In this document: positions 4,450-24,669 of the stretch, piece by piece | Layout: the number at the start of each line of letters is the position of its first letter | How positions within the stretch are numbered: position 1 is the first letter of the stretch | Assembly (NCBI GenBank): GCA_047946875.1 | Contig: CP181398.1 | Location: 574,514 to 638,513 of the forward strand | Reading direction: 5' to 3' | DNA: 64,000 nt | DNA from: Candidatus Kerfeldbacteria bacterium | GTDB lineage: Bacteria; Patescibacteriota; Patescibacteriia; UBA10025; JAHIVO01 | Program-made: the position numbers and the translations under genes | The notes under the pieces: model-generated | What the model was told of the DNA's origin: nothing | What the model saw: only the letters and a program-made list of their open reading frames with translations | The model's database searches: none

Positions 4450-4652
4450 GACATTTCTCCATATATTTAGTTTTCAAATTACAATTTTTGTATTTTATTT
4501 AGTCGTTAAAATTACCATTTATAATGATAAATAGTCAAATTCGATAAGATGTATATTCTATGAATTATATTGTGTCCACAATACCAAGATGTTATATCAA
4601 AAAACACCTCCTATTTATTGAAAGGTGTTTTTGGTTATTTCTTTATACCCTT

Positions 4653-5831
4653 TTAATCAATAGGGTTATTTCCGCTATCAATCTCAATTTTATCATCATA
4701 ACCGTCACCGTCTGTATCAGACTTATTATCGTTAGTTTGATAAACCAATTCTAAATAGTATGGGAGCCCATCATTATCATTATCTAAATCAATATCATCT
4801 TTTGCTACACTTTCCATATTTATAATATCAATTTCTCCTTTTTCTAATCCATCTTGGAAAACTAATTCTCTTATCATAAAAAAATAATACATTCTAAAAA
4901 ACGGAAACCTTACAATAATTGCGTCATCTTTTGTAAATCCTGGGGGGTAATCTATTTTCTCTGGACCAAAAACCATTCCAAAATAATAATACTGTCCATC
5001 ATCAATTACTGGAGTTAATACAAAGGGATTATTTTCCATCTCTAATATTCTATTTTTTATATCTTCGTTAATATCCAAATCCTTTATTAACTCCTCGTTA
5101 GAATTAAGCAAAAAATCACCATCGGCAAATTGAAATTGCTCGTCAGGTCGCACGTTAAAATCTATACGCATAAAATCAAGGTCATCTTGAGAAGAATAAT
5201 TAATTCGATTTTGAAATGCACTATATACTTCCTTAACTCTATCACCTACTAAAGAATGAAAAGCTGGCTGAAATTGTTCATTAGTTGATCCCCTTAATTC
5301 TTCAAGTCTATTGCCCCACGCTAGTAACTTAACATAATCATCCCAATATATTTCACTAATCCCAACATTTTCTAGTACTAATTTTTTATTATCACCAGTG
5401 TACTTTCCATTTATTAAATTTATATACTCTGTAATGGGTTTAAGTTCAATCCCCATTCTTATAATTGCTTCCTCAACTACATATCTATTTATAAATAAAT
5501 TTAAAGCAATAATTTCTTTTGGAGTTTTATTTAAATCTACTGGCATAATAAACTGCTGTTCCATACCTATAATAAATCCAGCCAGAGAATAGTTTGTTTC
5601 CATTTCACCTAACATTTCAACAATTCTTTCAAATTCAGTCTTATTAATATTATTATTAAAAACGGTTGCTATAGTATTGGCATCAACACTATTAATATTT
5701 ATATTTTCTATAACGGAATTATTGACATCAGATATATCTGACACTTCATTATTATTGACAGATAAATAATAAAATACGCCTCCTCCTATCAATACAACAA
5801 TGATAATAATTAAAATTAATATTTTATTCAT
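4653..5831 (-). CDS. hypothetical exported or membrane-anchored protein with a C-terminal Ca-binding-like DxDxDG acidic tail
   Basis: 392 aa with an N-terminal hydrophobic helix (ILILIIIIVVLIGGGVFYYL) and a C-terminus ...DTDGDGYDDKIEIDSGNNPID. AAAGGAG lies upstream of the ATG. I recognise no family. Confidence 0.55.
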   Translation of the reverse strand: MNKILILIIIIVVLIGGGVFYYLSVNNNEVSDISDVNNSVIENININSVDANTIATVFNNNINKTEFERIVEMLGEMETNYSLAGFIIGMEQQFIMPVDLNKTPKEIIALNLFINRYVVEEAIIRMGIELKPITEYINLINGKYTGDNKKLVLENVGISEIYWDDYVKLLAWGNRLEELRGSTNEQFQPAFHSLVGDRVKEVYSAFQNRINYSSQDDLDFMRIDFNVRPDEQFQFADGDFLLNSNEELIKDLDINEDIKNRILEMENNPFVLTPVIDDGQYYYFGMVFGPEKIDYPPGFTKDDAIIVRFPFFRMYYFFMIRELVFQDGLEKGEIDIINMESVAKDDIDLDNDNDGLPYYLELVYQTNDNKSDTDGDGYDDKIEIDSGNNPID

Positions 5832-13223: not shown

Positions 13224-14270
13224 CTACCTTGCTGGCAATTCTTTTTTACACACTCCGCTATCACATGTCAAAATAGCCTTGCTCTGCTCTTCGCAATAAT
13301 AATCATCCCATAATGGACATTTAGCAAAATTACATCCATATTCCGCCTGTAATTCTGAATATTTCGTACTAAAATCTTCTAGATTCACTCCTACCCATTG
13401 TTCTTCGTCATAATCAGGGCAATCTTGTTGTGGACAACATACACTAAAATCCTCTGTAGTGTCAGCGAACATACAATCAGATGCTTGTTCGCAAGACGTT
13501 GATACACCTAAATTTAATAACTTTTGTGAATTATTCCCGCATATAGTTTCACATTCACCTATATCAACAAACGGAATAGTATCACCCATTGAGCTACATC
13601 CGGATATATATTTGCATAACGAACCGTCGTAGTATACACCGAGTACCATTTCACACGTACCATAACTTTGAGAGGGACGCCAATTGCAAATCTCATTTGT
13701 CCCTTGCATGGCTGTACAATCAAGGTCAATACATCCCATGAATCGAGAATTACTACACATACATTCTTCAGTTGCTTCATTTGTACATTTTCCATACCAC
13801 TCTGAAGACGTATTACACTCGCATGTTTCTACAGAAAGACAATCCTCTCGTTTGTTACAACGAGTATTGTCAGAAATGTCACCACATGAAACACTCCCGC
13901 TTGATGGACAATAACAACTCCCTGCACCGCCACAATCAGCCGTACAAATATCTCCACTACAGCCACTTGAAACACATCTTTGTTCACAGTTGGTAGGGCA
14001 GTCACCATATGTAAACTGACTGCAATAATCATTCGTACATGTAGAAGTAGTGTTTACGTTTATGCTATTTGTATTAGCATTATTTAATATTGCAGTATTT
14101 ATATTTATATTATTACTATTCAAACTAGGACTTTTACCTATTGAAAACACAAATAACATAATTGCTACTCCAACTACTAATGAAATTCCAACAATACTTA
14201 CTCCAATCCAAAGAATTACTTTATTACCTTTAATTTTATTTTCGGAAGAGTCGTCTTGTTGAATTGACAT
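13224..14270 (-). CDS. Cys-rich exported protein with an N-terminal TM anchor and an Asn-rich linker
   Basis: 348 aa. An N-terminal TM helix is followed by an Asn-rich low-complexity segment, then about 48 Cys arranged in repeated CxxC, CxC and CC patterns. GC content is higher than the flanking genes. The internal ORFs in the track are spurious. Confidence 0.6.
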   Translation of the reverse strand: MSIQQDDSSENKIKGNKVILWIGVSIVGISLVVGVAIMLFVFSIGKSPSLNSNNININTAILNNANTNSINVNTTSTCTNDYCSQFTYGDCPTNCEQRCVSSGCSGDICTADCGGAGSCYCPSSGSVSCGDISDNTRCNKREDCLSVETCECNTSSEWYGKCTNEATEECMCSNSRFMGCIDLDCTAMQGTNEICNWRPSQSYGTCEMVLGVYYDGSLCKYISGCSSMGDTIPFVDIGECETICGNNSQKLLNLGVSTSCEQASDCMFADTTEDFSVCCPQQDCPDYDEEQWVGVNLEDFSTKYSELQAEYGCNFAKCPLWDDYYCEEQSKAILTCDSGVCKKELPAR

Positions 14271-14904: not shown

Positions 14905-14978
14905 AGTATACCAAAAAACACCTCAACCTGCGAGGTGAGCTCTGGCAGGGGCTCGTACCTGCCTGCCGGCAGGCAGGG
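14905..14978 (-). terminator. terminator + extended -10 promoter cassette: two hairpins, T6, then TGGTATACT
   Basis: Minus strand CCCTGCCTGCCGGCAGGCAGGG ... CACCTCgcaggttGAGGTG-TTTTTT-GGTATACT. It terminates the 14997..15734 gene and provides an extended -10 (TGnTATAcT) about 34 nt before the 14425..14871 start. Confidence 0.55.
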
Positions 14979-14996: not shown

Positions 14997-15734
14997 TTAT
15001 TTGTTATTCCCATTCGTCTGCATAGTTGACCCAGATTCAATCTCGGGAATCTTAAATCCTTTTACTATTAACCAAATAGCCAACACTAGCTCCTGTATTG
15101 CTAATGGCGCAAATAACATAGTTGATAATGTGGAATTTGGATCTTCATTGATTAACAGAGGCAATAACCCTGAAATTAGCATAAGTGGAGCTCCAATAAT
15201 CCCCCAGACTGATAACCATCTTGGGATAAGTTTCGATTTGTAGAATAAGCAATATAAAATTATTGCACCAACACTAAAAACCGTATATCCAAGCATCCAA
15301 GTATAATCGGATACTGATAAAATTATATTTTTTAAGGTTTCAAAATAAGCTATATCTACAGATCCTGCTAGCGTAAATTCCCGGCTTAAGGCTAATATTG
15401 ATAGAAAACCAAGTATACCAACTAAGAAAATTCCACCCTCCATCACTCTACTGCCAAGATACCAATTTGCTAAACCTTCTTTTATTCCTGAATCTTTTTT
15501 TAATACTGGATAAATCATAAATGCGATAGCCGCTACTGCTATTGCCATTACCAACGCAAACATAGCTGCTAATATTACATTTGTTTCATTATTCGAAACA
15601 TTCAGCAACACGTCTCCATCGGTAAATAATGACCCCAAAGAAGCAGCTGATAATACTCCGGCAACGGTTGCAACGAGATATAATATACCGGCCCACAATG
15701 CCGCTTTTCTACTTGAAGTCATTTTCTCTTTCAT
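14997..15734 (-). CDS. DUF4386-like membrane protein
   Basis: 245 aa with six hydrophobic helices. The N-terminus (SRKAALWAGILYLVATVAGVLS) resembles the DUF4386 family. Confidence 0.5.
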   Translation of the reverse strand: MKEKMTSSRKAALWAGILYLVATVAGVLSAASLGSLFTDGDVLLNVSNNETNVILAAMFALVMAIAVAAIAFMIYPVLKKDSGIKEGLANWYLGSRVMEGGIFLVGILGFLSILALSREFTLAGSVDIAYFETLKNIILSVSDYTWMLGYTVFSVGAIILYCLFYKSKLIPRWLSVWGIIGAPLMLISGLLPLLINEDPNSTLSTMLFAPLAIQELVLAIWLIVKGFKIPEIESGSTMQTNGNNK

Positions 15735-15822
15735 AATTTTATAATTAAATAATTAACTTATTTAAGTATACCAAAAAATACCTAAATCATCGAGGTGACT
15801 TTTGATAACTTTGTAATCATAG

Positions 15823-16638
15823 TTATTGTTGTTTTATAAAATTATTTACAAATTCATTAAATTTATTTGGATTATCCATATTTGCACAATGTCCTGCATT
15901 TTCAATCATAAAATATTTGCTATTATTAATTTCGGTAGGCAATTCTTTTGCTATTTTCTTTGACAATTCTATATTAAACTCTCCTACTAGTATCAAAGTT
16001 TGGTATTGTAGTTTAATGTTCTCTCTGTCTTTAATAATATTTTGAAGTCCTGACATTACCATAAATGATTTTCTTTTATAATGGCTAGTAGTTTCATAAA
16101 ATAAGGCCTGTGCTTTTTCTGATTTACAAATATTCTTCGCAGTCATTTTTCTAAATGATTTCATAGAAAACATTGCTCTAAATATCAAACTCAAATTATA
16201 AGACCTTTGAGCTTTAGCAACTTCTTTATCTACTTTATTTATATTATACCCGCCCAATATTGTTAGAGATTTAGTTTTTTCTGGATTTTTTAAGGCAAAA
16301 TATTGGGCAATTAATGAACCCATTGAAATTCCTACAAGATGAGTACTCTCAAATCCCTCAATTTTCATTATTTCATCAATATGTTTTTCTGAGATATCAA
16401 TTTTATCTTTTGATTTATTGGCTTTTGATAATCCATGTCCTATTAAATCTATTGTAATAATTCTAAAATCTTTAGAGAAAAAATCAATTTGTTGATCGAA
16501 TGCTCGATGATCTGAGAAAGCAGGATGTAAAAATACTATTAAATCCTTATCTTTTTTCCCAGAAATATAATAATGAATTTCATAGTCAACTTGTTTTAGA
16601 GTTTTATGCTCAATGTGTTCAGTAATATTTACAGTCAT
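15823..16638 (-). CDS. alpha/beta-fold hydrolase
   Basis: 271 aa with an HPAFSDH region and the nucleophile elbow GISMGS (GxSxG). AAAGGAAACAACC lies upstream of the ATG. Confidence 0.8.
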   Translation of the reverse strand: MTVNITEHIEHKTLKQVDYEIHYYISGKKDKDLIVFLHPAFSDHRAFDQQIDFFSKDFRIITIDLIGHGLSKANKSKDKIDISEKHIDEIMKIEGFESTHLVGISMGSLIAQYFALKNPEKTKSLTILGGYNINKVDKEVAKAQRSYNLSLIFRAMFSMKSFRKMTAKNICKSEKAQALFYETTSHYKRKSFMVMSGLQNIIKDRENIKLQYQTLILVGEFNIELSKKIAKELPTEINNSKYFMIENAGHCANMDNPNKFNEFVNNFIKQQ

Positions 16639-16906
16639 ATGGTTGTTTCCTTTTATTTATTTAATTTTACCAAATCCTAATTGAAATAAGAATAGTTTAT
16701 CATTTGCCAATCAAGGCAATTCTGTGTACCAGGAATGACGCTTACGGATCCGGTCCAGCCAGTATTATCCCCTGTTTCATAGTCAGGATTAACCAGTAAA
16801 TTGATGGCTGCCAGGGCAGTTTGACATTAAAAAGGCTAACGACAGATACTAACCCTGCGCATAAAACAAAAAACGATATCAAAAATAATAGAATTATTAT
16901 ATATTA

Positions 16907-17623
16907 TTATTTTTTAAGAACTTTCTTCAATATCTCTTCCTTATCAATTTTTTTACTACAAAAAAACCAATCCTGGCATTCTAACTCTTCTTTACCGTCC
17001 ATCCTGTCTTTTGCAACACCACATGAACCGGCAGGTCCCATAATTACATCATCTCCCGGTCTCCAATCAGCGGGGGTAGCAATCTCAAAAGCATCAGCTG
17101 CTTGCATAGCAACTAAAGCTCGATAAATTTCATCAAAATTACGTCCCAGACTCAATGGATAATAAATAATAGCTCTTATTATTCCCTTTGGATCTATAAA
17201 AAACACAGCACGTACGGCTTTAGTAGAATCTTCCCCAGGCTGTATCATTCCATACTTTTTAGCTACTTCCATTGTGATATCCTCAATCAATGGGAAATTT
17301 ACCTCCACATTTTTCATCCCCTTGTATTCAATCTTTTCCTTAATAGTTCTCAGCCAGGCAATATGGCTATATAATCCATCAATCGACAATCCAACTAATT
17401 TGCAATTTGCTTCCAAAAACTTCTTTTCCATAGATGCAAAAGTGATAAACTCCGAAGTACAAACTGGGGTAAAATCAGCTGGGTGGCTGAAAAGAATTAC
17501 CCAATCACCAGAATAATCTTCAGGAAAATTAATTTCGCCCTGCGTCGTAACTGCCTTAAATTTAGGTGCTTGATCACCAATTCGTGGCATAGCGGGTATT
17601 TGATTTTCATTTTCTTTTTCCAT
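16907..17623 (-). CDS. peroxiredoxin (1-Cys/Prx6-like) with a C-terminal CxxxxC extension
   Basis: 238 aa. The active-site motif DFTPVCTSEF and the WVILFSHPADFTPVCT context match 1-Cys peroxiredoxins. A C-terminal CQDWFFC extension follows. Confidence 0.9.
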   Translation of the reverse strand: MEKENENQIPAMPRIGDQAPKFKAVTTQGEINFPEDYSGDWVILFSHPADFTPVCTSEFITFASMEKKFLEANCKLVGLSIDGLYSHIAWLRTIKEKIEYKGMKNVEVNFPLIEDITMEVAKKYGMIQPGEDSTKAVRAVFFIDPKGIIRAIIYYPLSLGRNFDEIYRALVAMQAADAFEIATPADWRPGDDVIMGPAGSCGVAKDRMDGKEELECQDWFFCSKKIDKEEILKKVLKK

Positions 17624-17653: not shown

Positions 17654-17728
17654 AGTATAACAAAAATCACCTCAACCTACGAGGTGGGCTCTGGCGGGTA
17701 TTAATAAATGACGTTAAAACTTATATTA
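17654..17728 (-). terminator. terminator + promoter cassette, family member
   Basis: Minus strand ...AACGTCATTTATTAATACCCGCCAGAGCCCACCTCgtaggttGAGGTG-ATTTTTG-TTATACT, upstream of the peroxiredoxin gene. Confidence 0.5.
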
Positions 17729-18748
17729 TTAAATATACTTTTCAAAAATACCAAAAGTTCTTCCTTTTTTAGCACCAAAAATTTTAGCCAAAAACTGCGG
17801 AGGAACATTTTTCTTCAATATCCAAGAGGCCTCTGCTTCTTTATAATCTTTATCTATTAATGTTTTCATTAATAAATTACCCATTTGTTTGCCAATGCCT
17901 TGCCTTAAATAATCAGAATGCACTCCGATCGAAACAATTCTTGCTTTATCAATCTTACCTTCAAAAATTTTTTGATTATAATCCGGTAGACAAACAAGTG
18001 AACCGATAATTTTTTTATTGTCGTCCTCAGCAATTATTATTAAATCCTTATCCATAAATGGTATTAATCTATTTATTAGCTTACCTTCTTCCTCTAAAGT
18101 TCTAGGAATGTATCCTTCATGTGATATAAAAACATCAATTTGAAATTTATGAAATAATTTTATTTCATTTTCTATATCCTTATCATTAAATGTTCGGAGT
18201 TTTACATTGTCTTTAGATTTTACGTACTTCGCAATTTTTTTATTAAAATAAAAAGTAACCAATTTTTGAGATAATTTATAGTTTGCCTTTTTAATTATTT
18301 TTTTATAATATTTTGGGTTGTAAGATGTAAATATTGATGGCGGAATATTAAATTTAGAAATTTGTAAACCAGCTTGCATATTATCAATCTTTGGAAAAAT
18401 TACCTTCTTTACCTTATTTACTAATAATTTATCCTCTAATGCTCGAAACAATTCATTCATCTCTTTTTTATATTTCTCCAAACCCTCAAAATACCCAATC
18501 CAACCAACTCCTTTACTTTCAGGAGGTAGTATTGCGACACCACGAGCAATAGGCATATCATTATCTTCAAGAATCATCGGCCAACATTGATACCTAGGCC
18601 CACCAAGTAACTCAAATATTTGCTCTTTTAATTGTTTACGGTCTTCTATTATCCAATTTTTATCCCCTTTATATACTTCGACAGGAATATCAAAAAACTT
18701 ATTCCATAGATCATTATCACTTTTTTTTGATAATTCAATTATTTTCAT
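17729..18748 (-). CDS. two-domain GNAT-fold acyl/aminoacyl-transferase-like protein
   Basis: 339 aa. The C-terminal motif VSIGVHSDYLRQGIGKQMGNLLMK is an acetyl-CoA-binding-like Q/RxxGxG motif A. The N-terminal half looks like a second GNAT-like domain. Confidence 0.45.
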   Translation of the reverse strand: MKIIELSKKSDNDLWNKFFDIPVEVYKGDKNWIIEDRKQLKEQIFELLGGPRYQCWPMILEDNDMPIARGVAILPPESKGVGWIGYFEGLEKYKKEMNELFRALEDKLLVNKVKKVIFPKIDNMQAGLQISKFNIPPSIFTSYNPKYYKKIIKKANYKLSQKLVTFYFNKKIAKYVKSKDNVKLRTFNDKDIENEIKLFHKFQIDVFISHEGYIPRTLEEEGKLINRLIPFMDKDLIIIAEDDNKKIIGSLVCLPDYNQKIFEGKIDKARIVSIGVHSDYLRQGIGKQMGNLLMKTLIDKDYKEAEASWILKKNVPPQFLAKIFGAKKGRTFGIFEKYI

Positions 18749-20051
18749 TTTCTCTCATTACTCTAATTAATTTATTTGAATTTTTATTTCTTATAGGACC
18801 TTCATAAATATAATTTATTTCAGGTGTTATAGCTTTTATTTTATTTACCCAAAAATTTATATTTTCTATAATTTTATTTTCAATATCCCTGCTTACTTGA
18901 TTATTAACAGTGACTAATCTTATTGTTATTGACCCATTAATATGCTGTATTGCCTGAAATTCTAAAATATATTCCGAAGCCTGATTAATTGATCTTCTGA
19001 CATAATCAGGAAACAAATATCTCTCCTTACCATCATTAGATTTCAAAATAAAAATATCGTCTTCACGACCATGTATTTTTTTTATTATTTGAAAATTTGA
19101 ACCACACTTACATTTTTTATCATCTAATTCCATTACGTCATGAAGAGAATATCTTACAAATGGAGCACATGTTCTATACAAATCAGTTACCAAAACTCTT
19201 TTTAAATTTTCATTTTCCTTATCAATATTTTCAAACTCAAAAAAAGTAGTATCCTCATTCAAATGAAGACTACCCTCTTTACAAGTAGCAGCAAGAAAAC
19301 CCTCAGCCCCCTGATAAATTTCAATTAATTTAGAACCAAAACTATCTACTAACGTATTTTTGACTTTTTCAGACAAAACCTCTGCATATGAAATTAATAA
19401 TTTTGGCTTAACAACTATCTCATCTATTTTTTTGCTAATCATATATAACAAAGAAGGTGGTCCAGCAATAACATTTATTTTTTTATCATTAATTTCATAA
19501 ATCAGCTTGTCGACATTTACGGTATAATCTGCATATGATATATATATACCAAATTTTTTTACTTCCATGAATGCAGCATTATTTCTTCTCAACAAAAACA
19601 AAACTCTTGGTTTTTTTACATATGATATTATATTACTTCTTGCCAACAATAATGTTGGGTACAATTCTCTTTCAGATTTTGACAAAACAGTTAAAGTTAC
19701 ATTTCCCGATGTACCTGAAGACAAACCTATTGAATAATTTTCATTAAACAAACCAATTGAATTTGAACGCTGCTGCTTGATACTAAAATCTAACAGAATA
19801 TCTTTTTTTAATCCTGCAGTATTAATATTATCAAAGTTGTCCATAAAAACCTTTTTATCAATAACAGGTAATTTTTCAAAATTGTCATTATCCTTCAAGA
19901 TATCTCGATAATATATTGATTTTCTTTTCAATAATGCTATTAATTTATTAAGTCTTTTTTCTTGATGTCTTTTAATTCTTTGTTTTGACCAATTATAAAA
20001 TCTAATTTTTAATATAATTATATAAAAAAGTGATTTTAAAGCATTTTTCAT
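18735..20051 (-). CDS. adenylate-forming enzyme (PaaK / coenzyme F390 synthetase / LuxE acyl-protein synthetase-like)
   Basis: 438 aa with the GLSSGTSGNVT phosphate-binding motif that characterises the PaaK/F390-synthetase/LuxE branch. It overlaps the downstream GNAT gene by 14 nt, so the two form an operon. Confidence 0.5.
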   Translation of the reverse strand: MKNALKSLFYIIILKIRFYNWSKQRIKRHQEKRLNKLIALLKRKSIYYRDILKDNDNFEKLPVIDKKVFMDNFDNINTAGLKKDILLDFSIKQQRSNSIGLFNENYSIGLSSGTSGNVTLTVLSKSERELYPTLLLARSNIISYVKKPRVLFLLRRNNAAFMEVKKFGIYISYADYTVNVDKLIYEINDKKINVIAGPPSLLYMISKKIDEIVVKPKLLISYAEVLSEKVKNTLVDSFGSKLIEIYQGAEGFLAATCKEGSLHLNEDTTFFEFENIDKENENLKRVLVTDLYRTCAPFVRYSLHDVMELDDKKCKCGSNFQIIKKIHGREDDIFILKSNDGKERYLFPDYVRRSINQASEYILEFQAIQHINGSITIRLVTVNNQVSRDIENKIIENINFWVNKIKAITPEINYIYEGPIRNKNSNKLIRVMRENENN

Positions 20052-20055
20052 TAAT

Positions 20056-21390
20056 TTATTTTAATGTTTTTACAGTTTGACTAAATTCATTATACTTGTC
20101 ACGAGAAATAGTATAGCGTTGTAGTACAATGGCAGATAAAACTATAAATACAGCTGGAACCACCCCAAAAACTATACGAATTCCCATTAAAGCACTTGAT
20201 GGTTGTATTGCTAAATCGCCAACATAACCAGTAACACTAAGAATAACACCAATAAACAGACCCGATAAAGCAATTCCTAATTGGTGTGAAGTCATCCAAT
20301 ATCCGAAAAATGTAGACTCATGTCTTTCATTAAACTTAACATTATAATATTCAACTAAGTCAGGAACTAATGAATAAGGGATTAAAAGCCAACCGGCCAT
20401 TGAAAATCCTAATAATAAACAACCAACATAGAATGGTATTGTAACAGATTCGCTAACGCCAAATGCTATAGCTAATAATATAATTGCTGAAACTATATTT
20501 GATATTAATAATAAACGACGTTTATCGTGTTTCTTTGTCATCTTATTCCATATTGGAATACCTATTGCAGTAGCAACAACATATATTGCCAACGCATAAG
20601 TACTACTACTCGTACTTCCAACAATATTTTCTGTAAAGTAAACCATACTTACAGTAAGAGCTCCTGTTCCTATAGCTCCTAAAACTTTTACAATCATTAA
20701 AATCAAAACATTTCTTTTTGCTAATAATTTAAAATAGCTTTTAAACTTTAAAGGACTTATTGGTATATTATTTTCTGGAGTATCTATTTTTTTTACACTC
20801 CAAGCGGCAATAAGCGTTGTAAATATTGTAATAACCCCCAAAATAACTGTCATCATTCTTAAGGTAACTACTGCATCAGTACCATCGGAGATTAATAACG
20901 CAAGTCCACCACCAAGAATTGATCCAAAAGTAGATAGAACTGCCCTGATGCTGGTAATTTGAGTTCTTTCATCATAATCTTTTGACATTACCGGCACTAG
21001 TGCCATATAAGGCACTGTTACAACAGAATATGCTGTTGCATATAGTAAGATTAACAATGTAGCAATTACAAATTGTAATCCTTCATTTGCTAAACTAGGT
21101 ATAAACCAAAGTAATGCAAAGCTTAACCCAAAAGGTACTGCACCAAATAAAAGGAAAACTCTTTTTCTACCAAATTTTGATTTTATTCTATCAGACCACA
21201 CTCCAATTATTGGATCATTTATACTATCCCATAATTTCCCAATAAAAAATGCTATACCAGCGAGATAAGCACTCATACCAATAATATCAGTCAAATAATA
21301 AATAAAGAAAAATCCAACTGCAAAATACGATATTGATATCCCAAAGTCTCCCATACCATAAGCAATTTTTTTAGAATATTTTAGTCCCAT
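20056..21390 (-). CDS. GPH family (MelB-like) glycoside-pentoside-hexuronide:cation symporter
   Basis: 444 aa. YGMGDFG and DSINDPIIGVWSDR are the GPH-family signatures. Confidence 0.8.
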   Translation of the reverse strand: MGLKYSKKIAYGMGDFGISISYFAVGFFFIYYLTDIIGMSAYLAGIAFFIGKLWDSINDPIIGVWSDRIKSKFGRKRVFLLFGAVPFGLSFALLWFIPSLANEGLQFVIATLLILLYATAYSVVTVPYMALVPVMSKDYDERTQITSIRAVLSTFGSILGGGLALLISDGTDAVVTLRMMTVILGVITIFTTLIAAWSVKKIDTPENNIPISPLKFKSYFKLLAKRNVLILMIVKVLGAIGTGALTVSMVYFTENIVGSTSSSTYALAIYVVATAIGIPIWNKMTKKHDKRRLLLISNIVSAIILLAIAFGVSESVTIPFYVGCLLLGFSMAGWLLIPYSLVPDLVEYYNVKFNERHESTFFGYWMTSHQLGIALSGLFIGVILSVTGYVGDLAIQPSSALMGIRIVFGVVPAVFIVLSAIVLQRYTISRDKYNEFSQTVKTLK

Positions 21391-21426: not shown

Positions 21427-21510
21427 AGTATACCAAAAAATACCTCAACCTGCGAGGTGGGTTCTGGCGGGTATTAGTGAACGACGTTCGAACTAAGATT
21501 CTTAATACGC
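21427..21510 (-). terminator. terminator + promoter cassette, family member
   Basis: Minus strand ...CGTCGTTCACTAATACCCGCCAGAACCCACCTCgcaggttGAGGTA-TTTTTTGGTATACT, between the FG-GAP gene and the GPH transporter gene. Confidence 0.5.
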
Positions 21511-23979
21511 AGGAAAAATATTTACACCTCCACGAAATCCTGTATGATGTGTAAAAAATTGGGATTTAACAGTACCCCACATATCAAAAATTCTAACTTG
21601 TGGACCCATTCCAGCTCCAGGAGCAGTCACGATTTCATTTACCCCATCAGCATCAACATCAGCAATAAAAGAAGAAAAATTTCCTCGTAGATGATTACTA
21701 TAAGCAAAGAATTGTGACAATACTTCCCCTCTTGTATTAAATACCCTGACATGTGGACCTGCATTAGATTCAGGCGTAGCAATAATTTCATTTACCCCAT
21801 CAGCATTTACATCACCAATAGAGATATTTAAACCTCCACGGAAAGTCTCAGCATAAGCGAAAAATCTTCCTATAAGCGTACCGTCACCTTTAAACATTGC
21901 TACTTGAGGGCCTAAACCTGACTTTGGAGTTATTATAATATCAGAAACGTCATCAGCATTTACATCACCAACTGATAAATTATATCCTCCACGAATAGTT
22001 GGAGCATATGCCCAAAACTGAGAAACCAGCGTTCCATCTTTTTCAAAAACTCTCACCTGTGGTCCAGCGCTAGATTCTGGCATGGTGATGATTTCAAACA
22101 TTCCATCATTGTCTACATCAGCTAATGCAATACTAACACCTCCACGGAATGTCTCAGCATATGCATAAAACTGAGACTCTAAATTACCATAGCTATCTAA
22201 AATTCTTATATGAGGCGCTGCACCTTGTTTAGGTACTGCAACTATCTCAACTCTCCCATCGTCGTCTATATCTCCAGCCGCCATATTAATACCGGCTCTC
22301 ATATTTGAGGTATAAAACATAAACTCTGCTATTTGATAACCCGCTGAGTTAAATAATCTTACTAATGGCTCGGCACCCACTCCTGGAGCAATTATAAATT
22401 CAGATATACCATCAGTACCCAAATCAATAGAAGTAGCCGTCATACCAAATCTTAAAGAAGAATCATATGCAAAAAAATTAGTAAGTGTTTCTCCCAAATA
22501 ATTTTTAATTATTACTTGTGGGCCACCAGCACTTATTGGAGTAGCTAATATATTTACAGGAGTTGCAACTTCTATTGGCTTTATTCTTTGAGTAAAAATA
22601 TCATGATTGTATCCAGGATTAGTATAATGATTCCTTTCATCCTCCCATACTACTATAATACCCCTATTTCCGTCATTTGCTACGGAATATCTATACCGAT
22701 TGCCGTCACCTGTTGACACTAAATACCCTTCGTTACCCCATAAAAGTCTGCCGTTTACATCAACTTTTTGCATATACAAATCGGACCACATTTGTGGTGT
22801 ATCGGTTGAAGCGTATGTTGTGAAAAAAACATTTCCCCTCCCATCCGCAAGTAGCTCGGGCGCATAATGAGAAAGAGATATGTCAATAATTCCTATTCCG
22901 TCACTTCCCCATTTGAGATTTCCTTCTTGATCAATCCTCTGACCATACATCTTAGTAATTGTGTCATTCCAGCTCACCCAACCGACTACCAGACCACCAA
23001 CACCATCCGAAATTATCATTTCATGCATATTACTGACCATATCTGAAATTAATACTCCATCATTTTCCCATTGCATATCTCCATCAAGATTAATTTTTTG
23101 CACACGTAAATCTCCATAATTACCTATTCCTTCCTTGAATAAAACATAAATATTCGACCCACTTATCACTACGTTTTGATTGCCATACCAAAATTTGACA
23201 GATGATGCAACGACGACATCTGAATTCCAGATACGTTCTCCATCACTTGTAATTCTCTGGCCATAAATTACATTATCATCCTGCCAAAAAACTACCGATC
23301 CTCCATCTTCTGTTAAAGCAAGACTAATTTTGCTAATCTCTAATCCTGAAAAATCGTAAGTTGTTTCTGAAATCGCCTTACCTTCAGTGCCCCACAGTAA
23401 AGTTCCAGCAGTATTTATCCTATTTGCATAAACTACATTATTTTTAATCCAGACAATTATTGCGCCACCATTGCTATCTGAAATGACTTGCACTCCGCCC
23501 TCATTTGTCTGATCATGAGACACCTGCACGCCATTATTTGTCCACTGCACCTCACCACTTACATTAATTCGCTGAGTATATATATCAGTGTTATATTCCT
23601 CATCTCGATTATCCTGCCATACAACAATGGCACCATGCTGGGAATCGCTAACGACGTGGGCAGCTCCGCTTCCACCGCTCTGCGCTACAATCGCTTTTAC
23701 CTGCCCGCTCCATTGAGCAACTCCATCACTATCAATCCGTTTTGCATAAATACCGGAAGCAGATCCTTGGTCAGACATCTTATAAAAAAATAATCCTCCC
23801 CCATACCCATCACCAACCACTTTCGGAGTCGGACCATTACTATCTGATAATACAACAAATTCACCATTCTCAGTCCATTTTACTTCATCATTTTCCATGG
23901 ATGCATATACTTGAGCAGGTATTAAAATAAACATTCCTGTAACCAACAAGGTAATTAATACTTTTTTCATAGTTTTCAA
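21502..23979 (-). CDS. large secreted repeat protein with an N-terminal 8x repeat and a C-terminal 7x FG-GAP-like beta-propeller
   Basis: 825 aa with a signal peptide. The N-terminal half carries about 8 repeats of the type D-[IL]-Y-x-Q-R-I-x-x-x-G-x-x-x-W. The C-terminal half carries about 7 repeats of the type FFAY...RGG.N..IGDV[DN]ADGVxEII..P..GAGP[HQ]VR[IV]F, which is FG-GAP-like with DxDxDG loops. Confidence 0.7.
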   Translation of the reverse strand: MKTMKKVLITLLVTGMFILIPAQVYASMENDEVKWTENGEFVVLSDSNGPTPKVVGDGYGGGLFFYKMSDQGSASGIYAKRIDSDGVAQWSGQVKAIVAQSGGSGAAHVVSDSQHGAIVVWQDNRDEEYNTDIYTQRINVSGEVQWTNNGVQVSHDQTNEGGVQVISDSNGGAIIVWIKNNVVYANRINTAGTLLWGTEGKAISETTYDFSGLEISKISLALTEDGGSVVFWQDDNVIYGQRITSDGERIWNSDVVVASSVKFWYGNQNVVISGSNIYVLFKEGIGNYGDLRVQKINLDGDMQWENDGVLISDMVSNMHEMIISDGVGGLVVGWVSWNDTITKMYGQRIDQEGNLKWGSDGIGIIDISLSHYAPELLADGRGNVFFTTYASTDTPQMWSDLYMQKVDVNGRLLWGNEGYLVSTGDGNRYRYSVANDGNRGIIVVWEDERNHYTNPGYNHDIFTQRIKPIEVATPVNILATPISAGGPQVIIKNYLGETLTNFFAYDSSLRFGMTATSIDLGTDGISEFIIAPGVGAEPLVRLFNSAGYQIAEFMFYTSNMRAGINMAAGDIDDDGRVEIVAVPKQGAAPHIRILDSYGNLESQFYAYAETFRGGVSIALADVDNDGMFEIITMPESSAGPQVRVFEKDGTLVSQFWAYAPTIRGGYNLSVGDVNADDVSDIIITPKSGLGPQVAMFKGDGTLIGRFFAYAETFRGGLNISIGDVNADGVNEIIATPESNAGPHVRVFNTRGEVLSQFFAYSNHLRGNFSSFIADVDADGVNEIVTAPGAGMGPQVRIFDMWGTVKSQFFTHHTGFRGGVNIFPAY

Positions 23980-24039: not shown

Positions 24040-24114
24040 TGGCGGGAGCACTAGGACTCGAACCTAGAATAAGGGTTTTGGAGACCCTTGTGATAGCCAT
24101 TTCACTATGCTCCC
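24040..24114 (-). tRNA. tRNA-Trp (anticodon CCA), CCA end encoded
   Basis: Read by eye on the minus strand: GGGAGCATAGTGAAATGGCTATCACAAGGGTCTCCAAAACCCTTATTCTAGGTTCGAGTCCTAGTGCTCCCGCCA. It has a 7-bp acceptor stem, a TTCGAGT T-loop and anticodon loop CTCCAAA. Confidence 0.85.
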
Positions 24115-24133
24115 ACATAAAAACGAAATGTAA

Positions 24134-24289
24134 TTATTTCGTTTCTTTATGCTGTGTATGTTTTTTACACCATTTACAGAATTTCTTTAACTCTAATCTA
24201 TCCTTAAGAAGTTTTTTATTTTTCTTAGAATAATGTGTAATTTGATGACATTCACTGCATTCAAATTTTATCAGATTGTCTTGTGACAT
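24134..24289 (-). CDS. rpmG: 50S ribosomal protein L33
   Basis: 51 aa ORF absent from the track because it is under 60 aa. MSQDNLIKFECSECHQITHYSKKNKKLLKDRLELKKFCKWCKKHTQHKETK carries the CxxC...CxxC zinc ribbon and the RLELKK-C-C-KHT-HKETK signature of L33. Confidence 0.85.
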   Translation of the reverse strand: MSQDNLIKFECSECHQITHYSKKNKKLLKDRLELKKFCKWCKKHTQHKETK

Positions 24290-24327
24290 ATATTTTTTAT
24301 TATTTAACTATTTTAATAACTAATTAT

Positions 24328-24420
24328 CCGTGGCAAAACGGTATTACATCTATCCTTGCCTAAGCCACCCGTCCCGCGATGCGGGACGACCTCCCACTTA
24401 TTAGCGTAACTGGCCAAACA
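24328..24420 (-). pseudogene. tRNA-derived fragment: a tRNA-Thr(TGT)-like 3' half whose T-arm is replaced by a GTCCCGC-ATC-GCGGGAC hairpin
   Basis: The minus strand reads ...GGGAGGTCGTCCCGCATCGCGGGACGGGTGGCTTAGG. It shares the AGGTCGTC...GACGGGTGGCT segment with the 3' part of the adjacent tRNA-Thr(TGT). It has no canonical D-arm or T-loop. Confidence 0.3.
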
Positions 24421-24443
24421 AATGTATTCATTTATCCAACCAC

Positions 24444-24517
24444 AGCCACCCGTCGGGTTCGAACCGACGACCTACTGTTTACAAAACAGTTGCTCTAGCC
24501 AACTGAGCTAGGGTGGC
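24444..24517 (-). tRNA. tRNA-Thr (anticodon TGT), no encoded CCA
   Basis: Minus strand: GCCACCCTAGCTCAGTTGGCTAGAGCAACTGTTTTGTAAACAGTAGGTCGTCGGTTCGAACCCGACGGGTGGCT. It is a cloverleaf with a TTCGAAC T-loop and anticodon loop TTTGTAA. Confidence 0.85.
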
Positions 24518-24582
24518 TGCGATAGGACAAATTATGCTTTTTAAAAAACTTTTGCAAATTAATTACTACTAATAACTGCAAA

Positions 24583-24669
24583 TGGGCAGGGAGGGATTCG
24601 AACCCCCGAAGGCCGAAGCCAGCAGATTTACAGTCTGCCCCGTTTGACCACTTCGGTACCTACCCGCCC
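24583..24669 (-). tRNA. tRNA-Tyr (anticodon GTA), long variable arm, no encoded CCA
   Basis: Minus strand: GGGCGGGTAGGTACCGAAGTGGTCAAACGGGGCAGACTGTAAATCTGCTGGCTTCGGCCTTCGGGGGTTCGAATCCCTCCCTGCCCA. It is a type II tRNA with anticodon loop CTGTAAA, the TTCGAAT T-loop, and one G-U pair in each of the acceptor and T stems. Confidence 0.85.

Follow-up and report, generated by a model that had tools for sequence, protein, structure and literature searches.

In this work, we analyzed a 64,000-nt stretch of a Candidatus Kerfeldbacteria genome (hereafter, the window), which belongs to the candidate phyla radiation (CPR), and found that three of its adjacent genes form an autonomous cassette that recurs in both bacteria and archaea. 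These genes encode a probable cation-coupled carrier of the GPH family within the major facilitator superfamily (MFS), an adenylate-forming ligase with a PaaK fold, and an acyltransferase with tandem GNAT domains, all of which are named only generically by NCBI. The combination suggests a generic mechanism of uptake, acid activation, and N-acyl transfer, to which we assign a probability of approximately 0.75.

Conservation and layout of the cassette

Relatives of the ligase were scanned in one genome per species, which yielded 80 loci. The gene-neighborhood comparison, which the first-pass annotation of this DNA had proposed, found the same carrier-ligase-GNAT order and orientation in all 27 genome loci that have enough flanking sequence and a ligase with at least 41% identity to that of the window. 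Loci located at contig ends (L034, L043, and L061) contain those parts of the cassette that fit, and four metagenome contigs found through GNAT homologs have the identical three-gene arrangement. The hosts represent at least 10 phyla and two domains. Among the bacteria, these are Lentisphaeria, Peptococcaceae, Limnochordia, Chloroflexota (among them Anaerolineales and Dehalogenimonas), Spirochaetes, several families of Actinomycetota, Trueperaceae, Neomarinimicrobiota, and a Deltaproteobacterium. Among the archaea, these are two Heimdallarchaeota (Asgard) and five or six Thermoplasmatota/Thermoplasmatales. All-against-all clustering of the flanking open reading frames (ORFs) detected no further conserved neighbor, and in a Pfam scan of 106 immediate neighbor proteins, each family was limited to three loci at most and none was enriched. 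Furthermore, the pairwise identities of the three proteins co-vary among 30 cassettes (r = 0.74 for carrier-ligase, 0.86 for ligase-GNAT, and 0.74 for carrier-GNAT). The shared gene order, the absence of other conserved neighbors, and these co-varying identities indicate joint inheritance and transfer of the triad as a unit, and the cassette evidently moved horizontally as such. The patterns also indicate that only common cellular co-substrates are needed for its function.

A few local associations were observed. In one metagenome bin only (L001), the cassette is divergently adjoined by a gene for a 184-aa PlsC-type acyltransferase (positions 4470-5024, minus strand; PF01553), and trehalose-synthase-like and alpha-amylase genes are also nearby. 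This PlsC-like neighbor was considered as a functional clue and dropped because it occurs at a single locus. Genes for tRNAs, which are common integration sites, are located just 3′ of the cassette in the Anaerolineales and Dehalogenimonas loci (L018 7047-7254; L012 10036-10191), and three tRNAs are found at 24043-24665 of the window, approximately 2.6 kb upstream of the cassette. An Rfam scan of the window and of the sequences 5′ of 11 cassettes detected tRNAs only, with no riboswitch or other element.

In the window, the cassette and its associated signals are arranged as follows:

20056..21390, minus strand: gene for the probable cation-coupled GPH/MFS_2 symporter, 444 aa (ORF list, Pfam, TIGR00792)
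18735..20051, minus strand: gene for the PaaK-fold adenylate-forming enzyme, TIGR02304, 438 aa (ORF list, TIGR02304, AlphaFold2 model)
17729..18748, minus strand: gene for the tandem-GNAT acyltransferase, 339 aa (ORF list, Pfam)
21427..21435, minus strand: promoter-like extended -10 element TGgTATACT, approximately 37 nt 5′ of the transporter ATG (putative, from direct reading of the sequence)
17662..17686, minus strand: terminator-like hairpin (17686-17668) with a T-run, 43 nt 3′ of the GNAT stop (terminator scan and sequence)
21442..21474, minus strand: upstream copy of an intergenic repeat, with the hairpin of the preceding FG-GAP gene (21458-21442), at the 5′ boundary of the cassette
17669..17701, minus strand: downstream copy of the intergenic repeat, a 33-nt core matching 21442-21474

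The tight packing described in the first-pass annotation was borne out by the ORF list, and so was the 14-nt overlap between the ligase and GNAT genes (18735-18748). The transporter-to-ligase gap, which had been given as 5 nt, is actually a spacer of 4 nt (20052-20055; taa-atta-atg), with the transporter stop ending at 20056 and the ligase ATG starting at 20051. These ORFs are not chance occurrences, because they are 339-444 aa long in DNA of 27-33% G+C and have family-level matches to hidden Markov models (HMMs).

At both ends of the cassette, a G+C-rich hairpin is followed by a T-run and then by TGnTATACT on the coding strand. With this configuration on both sides, the three genes look like one transcription unit with its 3′ boundary at the hairpin in 17662..17686. 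A sigma-70 scan of the region did not call the TGgTATACT element because the -35 hexamer is absent. The repeat that exactly brackets the cassette is an intergenic element of approximately 65 nt with two near-identical copies, which are the only full copies in the window (vs. zero expected by chance). A partial third copy (14921-14938) has only the hairpin, the T-run, and the -10 part, such that TGnTATACT is located 3′ of the hairpin in all three copies. This element may be a genome-wide terminator/promoter module or the trace of an insertion. The G+C content is 0.25-0.30 in the cassette (window 17800-20500) and 0.35-0.42 in the flanking genes; together with the bracketing copies, this low value fits acquisition by transfer, without proving it.

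Several neighboring genes on the minus strand were also annotated. The gene at 21502-23979 encodes an 825-aa probable surface protein with an N-terminal signal-peptide-like hydrophobic stretch and FG-GAP repeats, and the gene at 13224-14270 encodes a 348-aa Cys-rich probable surface protein with an N-terminal hydrophobic stretch that resembles a membrane anchor. The region 3′ of the cassette (14997-17623) contains genes for a peroxiredoxin, an alpha/beta hydrolase, and a DUF4386 membrane protein, each of which apparently has its own promoter or terminator and is not linked to the cassette elsewhere. The peroxiredoxin has a weak match to the C-terminal domain of 1-Cys peroxiredoxins and scored 323.6 bits with PRK13189.

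Protein families and their relatives

The ligase passed the model TIGR02304 ("F390 synthetase-related protein"; 284 bits vs. a cut-off of 251.9, residues 14-431), and its ANL core motifs (SSGTSG, YQGAEG, TDLYR, GRxDD, and the C-terminal Lys of SxK) are invariant or nearly so in 29 homologs. The residues in question are S111-S112-G113-T114-(S115)-G116, Y246-Q247-(G248)-E250-G251, D290, G328-R329-(D331-D332), and K427, which we take to be the ANL motifs A3 (Ser/Thr/Gly-rich loop), A5 (aromatic-Gly-x-x-Glu), A7 (Asp), A8 (GRxDD hinge), and A10 (Lys), respectively. The AlphaFold2 model of this protein (predicted local distance difference test score 87.6) aligned over its full length to BT_0428, PaaK1/2, ClxA, NatL2, AjiA1, and HCL. 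A Foldseek search with this model gave E-values of 1e-24 to 1e-19 (best 9.7e-25) over approximately 430-460 columns (BT_0428, PaaK1/2, NatL2, AjiA1, and ClxA). By sequence, the best solved relatives are PaaK-type ligases, and the identity to solved members of the PaaK family is 14-21%. The ligase failed the PaaK equivalogs TIGR02155 and NF041878 (31.5 and 36.7 bits vs. cut-offs of 646.3 and 700, respectively), and its secondary NCBIfam matches are the aryl-acid ligases FlxY, PaaK, and BagE/FevW. No model of coenzyme F390 synthetase (FtsA), the enzyme with which methanogens adenylylate F420, is among its NCBIfam matches, and the name of TIGR02304 mirrors distant homology only.

A Pfam scan of the ligase (E ≤ 0.1) found no match, LuxE included. 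Of the PaaK/F390-synthetase/LuxE likeness suggested in the first-pass annotation, the PaaK/F390-synthetase part is therefore upheld by TIGR02304, the motifs, and the structural model, while the LuxE part is not; the adenylation core, on which that interpretation had been made to depend, is intact in both ANL motifs and PaaK fold. Many homologs of the ligase are annotated with PF00501 (AMP-binding) and/or PF27533, and the Pfam scan, made with a library that lacks PF27533, gave no match for the window protein or for one further protein (P0084). Our literature searches found no paper with "F390 synthetase-related" and no relevant paper on the triad, in line with the earlier statement that no described pathway fits this arrangement.

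A more distant clade of ligases with 29-35% identity is found in Proteobacteria (Kosakonia, Escherichia whittamii, Xenorhabdus, and Burkholderia), Saccharibacteria, Elusimicrobia, and Leptotrichia. Its genes (L035-L085, e.g., L036 3150-9455) never occur with the carrier or the GNAT gene. They belong to a conserved cluster with genes for beta-ketoacyl-ACP synthase III (KAS III), a short-chain dehydrogenase/reductase (SDR) of the 3beta-hydroxysteroid dehydrogenase (3beta-HSD) type, and a hydrolase with a metallo-beta-lactamase (MBL) fold, to which an ATP-grasp enzyme, PAP2_3, fatty-acid hydroxylase, desaturase, or glycosyltransferase gene is often added. This cluster provides a lipid-like context and is apparently uncharacterized. 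The SDR in the proteobacterial paralog cluster was considered as a CerR homolog and dropped, as the 25% identity represents generic SDR similarity. Separately, a Pseudomonadota ligase (L032 5017-8289) that matched the cassette-type profile at 6e-157 occurs without the carrier or GNAT gene and follows a Memo-like gene (PF01875).

The carrier passed the GPH:cation symporter model TIGR00792 (245.8 bits vs. a cut-off of 231.35, residues 8-440) and matched Pfam MFS_2 (PF13347) with an E-value of 1.4e-76, as expected from its first-pass assignment to this family, which we take to be TCDB 2.A.2 and to include MelB and MFSD2A. Its similarity to MelB (4.5e-33) and to the lysolipid symporter MFSD2A (2.2e-32) is about equal. 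Among 28 cassette carriers aligned with six E. coli GPH proteins (MelB, UidB, YicJ, YihO, YihP, and YagG), the MelB cation site is largely retained: D55 is found in 27 carriers, N58 in 22, and D59 in 27, with all three present in the window protein. This conservation suggests that the carrier is probably a cation symporter. D15, Y120, R141, and R148 are also kept, and an apparent loss of MelB R149 is a register shift of one residue. At position 124, the six E. coli carriers have either Asp or Asn and the cassettes have V, A, T, or G (mostly V or A); K377, which is invariant in those six, is replaced by Gln in 23 of the 28 cassette carriers and retained in five. The polar residue at position 124 and Lys377 that characterize the E. 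coli glycoside carriers are thus not shared, and the putative substrate site of the cassette carriers differs from those of the members compared. In addition, the cassette carriers have residues of their own, namely, invariant W372 and H376 and a nearly invariant P255. The idea that the sugar site was wholly replaced by hydrophobic residues was weakened when the five further E. coli carriers showed D15 and R148 to be retained. The mean identity among the carriers is approximately 49% even between bacteria and archaea, which makes the carrier as conserved as the ligase. A weak secondary NCBIfam match to the staphylopine exporter CntE was also noted.

The 339-aa acyltransferase has two consecutive GNAT folds in one chain, as the first-pass annotation had recognized. 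Pfam PF00583, its sole Pfam GNAT match, covers residues 234-314 (33.8 bits vs. 20.7), and the motif A loop of this C-terminal domain (LRQGIG; family consensus kkGvG) aligned to QRKGLG of 1wk4. The N-terminal domain is degenerate and the motif A loop is absent from it. The likeness to FemABX and MprF-C (DUF2156) that had been suggested was not found, as neither FemAB nor DUF2156 gave any signal; the same is true for LuxE. Searching PDB chains with the single sequence gave nothing, and searching them with the profile gave only generic matches to the C-terminal GNAT (E ≥ 0.005). An exhaustive search with the GNAT profile gave 9,487 cluster representatives at E ≤ 1e-3. Among 150 relatives listed, those of the cassette type are approximately 340-348 aa long, and the others are mostly 370-390 aa. 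Three fusions were observed in this family (P0193, P0156, and P0265): an SPT-like domain with a tandem GNAT (780 aa), a double tandem GNAT (784 aa), and a PilZ domain with a tandem GNAT (503 aa), the last of which has an N-terminal domain that weakly matches Acetyltransf_6.

The longer relatives, represented by an approximately 373-aa type, link the cassette GNAT to sphingolipid gene clusters. The two types aligned end to end in hhalign (probability 100%, E = 2.6e-58, 345 columns, 24% identity), with pairwise identities of 21-27%, and share the invariant residues F18, W32, R69, P145, Y148, G249, D256, R270, E306, S308, and N314. In 55 of the 80 metagenome loci of the longer type, the GNAT gene adjoins a gene for an alpha-oxoamine synthase similar to serine palmitoyltransferase (SPT), usually located directly upstream. 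Serine palmitoyltransferase is the best NCBIfam match of this synthase, below the cut-off. A 3beta-HSD-type SDR is nearby in 35 of these 80 loci, the GNAT is the only conserved acyltransferase, and neither a PaaK-type ligase nor a GPH carrier was found in any of them. In one representative, an SPT-like domain and a tandem GNAT are joined in a single chain. As side observations on these loci (L094-L173 and L088), 17 of them have a downstream gene of approximately 307 aa that looks like a putative branched-chain aminotransferase by sequence, and 15 have a gene of approximately 292 aa (DUF4835 in L089). In bacteria, the genes spt, bcerS (the acyltransferase), and cerR are often clustered (PMC11334938, PMC11087976, PMC11324152). 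The bacterial ceramide synthase bCerS N-acylates 3-ketosphinganine (PMC11087976, PMC11334938, PMC11324152) and is a soluble or peripheral cytoplasmic acyltransferase that acts on a long-chain amino lipid (PMC11087976). By sequence, the cassette GNAT thus appears to be closest to the acyltransferases of Spt-bCerS-CerR-type sphingolipid clusters. The cassette GNAT shares full-length homology with these enzymes and lacks their gene context, as it is not adjoined by spt or cerR; no SPT-like ORF was found in the window or in any of 29 cassette loci, for which approximately 5-6 kb to either side was covered.

Proposed mechanism and alternative explanations

In the proposed mechanism, the GPH/MFS_2 carrier would draw on a Na+ or H+ gradient to move its substrate to the cytoplasmic side of the membrane. 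The lead candidate for this substrate is an amphiphilic primary amine, e.g., a sphingoid long-chain base or another lyso-type lipid. The PaaK-fold ligase would then convert a free carboxylic acid with ATP to an acyl-adenylate and, most likely, to an acyl-coenzyme A (acyl-CoA), with a fatty acid as the lead candidate. The acyl thioester would be bound by the C-terminal GNAT domain. The amine would be held where this domain meets the degenerate N-terminal one and would receive the acyl group there, and the product would be a neutral N-acyl, ceramide-like compound. The GNAT fold typically N-acylates, and bCerS uses acyl-CoA. What we infer here are the direction in which the carrier works, the role of CoA in carrying the acyl group, and the nature of the two substrates. 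The order of events that the first-pass annotation had envisaged, in which a carboxylate is activated and then transferred to an amine, is supported in this general form.

The more specific version, with an amphiphilic amine as the acceptor and a fatty acid as the donor, is a tentative preference. This pair is favored because the only sequence relatives of the GNAT are of the ceramide-synthase type and the ligase has paralogs in lipid-like clusters, because the carrier has an altered site and resembles MFSD2A as much as MelB, and because the cassettes have no spt nearby and a dedicated acyl-CoA ligase suits hosts that lack an acyl-CoA pool. As no SPT-like gene was found at the cassettes or in the window, salvage fits better than de novo synthesis. 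According to work cited in PMC10191378, bacteria take up exogenous sphinganine and assimilate it. The cassette might serve, as a portable unit, to salvage or repair sphingoid bases or other lyso-type amino lipids, combining MFSD2-like flipping, a PaaK-type source of fatty acyl-CoA, and N-acylation by the GNAT; in this full form the proposal is rather doubtful.

Several observations weigh against the lipid-amine version. The solved PaaK-type ligases take aryl or small acids rather than long-chain fatty acids, and the structurally closest solved tandem GNATs acetylate amino sugars. The cassette GNAT is only 21-27% identical to the putative bCerS clade and lacks both insertions found there, and the assignment of this approximately 373-aa clade to bCerS, which has been characterized as CC_1154 in Caulobacter, itself rests on gene context. 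Two residues typical of sugar-carrying GPH members, D15 and R148, persist in the carrier. Moreover, many of the hosts are archaea, which have membranes that are not built from fatty acids, and lipid genes are not consistently linked to the cassette, with a lipid enzyme (PlsC-like) located beside only one of 29 cassettes.

Other substrates were also considered. The GPH carrier could import an amine-bearing glycoside, such as glucosamine (GlcN) or chitosan oligomers, for N-acylation by the tandem GNAT in the manner of GlmA or MshD, and the ligase could supply a special acyl-CoA or, like MshC ahead of MshD, attach an acid to the sugar. We consider such assimilation of amino sugars or glycosides unlikely. 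The structural matches reflect the general tandem-GNAT fold and come with no detectable sequence similarity to MshD/GlmA-type proteins, most cassettes have lost the polar position 124 and Lys377 of the E. coli GPH carriers, and no glycosidase or sugar kinase is conserved beside the cassette; with acetyl-CoA as the donor, a strictly co-inherited ligase would also be unnecessary. A further alternative is the conjugation of organic acids, in which an imported aromatic, xenobiotic, or otherwise unusual acid would be converted to a CoA thioester. The GNAT would then join it to an amine of the cell, such as that of an amino acid or polyamine, in the way of glycine conjugation by ACSM/GLYAT, for trapping, detoxification, or catabolic entry. 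The acids activated by the solved relatives of the ligase are all aryl-acetic, aromatic, or small and branched, the secondary matches to FlxY, PaaK, and BagE/FevW are aryl-acid ligases, and the need for common co-substrates only would suit the independence from neighboring genes. However, GPH carriers of aromatic acids are not known, the relatives of the GNAT and the paralogous clade of the ligase have no pointers to aromatic metabolism, and no downstream catabolic genes are linked to the cassette, such that this explanation also seems improbable.

Transport in the opposite direction was considered as well. If the ligase and the GNAT made an N-acyl metabolite (a lipoamino acid, signal, or surfactant), the MFS protein could export it or flip it outward, as MFS proteins beside small biosynthetic pairs are often exporters. 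The weak match to the staphylopine exporter CntE and the replacement of K377, a coupling residue in MelB, mostly by Gln are compatible with this possibility. In contrast, membership of the GPH family and the kept Asp55/Asn58/Asp59 indicate substrate:cation symport, i.e., import, and a mean carrier identity of approximately 49% across domains, equal to that of the ligase, suggests a specific ligand rather than generic efflux. Biosynthesis with export is therefore very unlikely. Finally, a fortuitous adjacency of three unrelated genes is excluded for practical purposes, because the gene order recurs in 27 genome loci and four metagenome contigs with unrelated flanks and the divergences of the three proteins co-vary; the junctions also overlap or nearly abut.

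Significance and comparison with known systems

The same three genes make up the cassette in hosts as different as a CPR bacterium with a 1.3-Mb genome and Asgard archaea, and since no other linked gene is needed, the cassette lends itself to heterologous expression as a compact target. If the GNAT acts like its relatives of the ceramide-synthase type, these findings would bear on how CPR bacteria without lipid synthesis obtain or remodel membrane lipids and on which organisms consume or modify the abundant sphingolipids in anoxic waters and sediments. Should the salvage reading be true, CPR bacteria that are auxotrophic for lipids, and even archaea of the Asgard and Thermoplasmatota groups, would be able to make ceramide-like lipids from scavenged components, or neutralize them, without spt, and the cassette would provide names for a transporter and enzymes of prokaryotic sphingoid-base uptake, for which none was found in our literature searches. 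If the cassette functions in the conjugation of sugar amines or organic acids instead, TIGR02304 and a distinct GPH subfamily would still acquire their first assigned function.

Each part of the cassette has well-studied counterparts. The carrier shares with MelB and MFSD2A the 12-helix MFS_2 fold (Pfam), the match to the GPH HMM, and Asp55/Asn58/Asp59, and differs from MelB in the sugar ligands D19, D124, W128, and K377, which are substituted in the cassette carriers. PaaK and the PaaK-like ligases (BT_0428, NatL2, AjiA1, ClxA, and HCL) have the same short two-domain ANL fold with all core motifs. Unlike PaaK, the window ligase falls in TIGR02304, of which no characterized member was found in the literature searched. 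The GNAT resembles bCerS in its tandem architecture, end-to-end homology, 11 common invariant residues, and C-terminal motif A loop, whereas it is approximately 30 residues shorter than the bCerS-like clade, lacks two insertions (approximately 10 and 17 residues), and always adjoins the PaaK-type ligase and the GPH carrier, never spt or cerR. MshD, GlmA, and Eis are also tandem-GNAT amine acetyltransferases, but their sequence similarity to the cassette GNAT is undetectable and their gene context is different.

As a whole, the cassette is closest in logic to LplT/Aas, which flips lysophospholipids inward for re-acylation (PMC11416262). In both systems, an MFS carrier that brings a lyso-lipid inward (for the cassette, its putative substrate), ANL-type acid activation, and an acyltransferase are encoded together and are self-sufficient. 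However, the parts are not orthologous: LplT is not a GPH protein, and Aas combines a long ANL acyl-ACP synthetase domain with a PlsC-type O-acyltransferase, in contrast to the PaaK-type ligase and the GNAT of the cassette. No LplT or Aas model was among the NCBIfam matches of the window proteins, and the likeness is thus one of functional logic only. The three superfamilies are well known, and the logic of carrier, activation, and acyl transfer has a precedent in LplT/Aas; what is new is the combination of parts and its wide spread.

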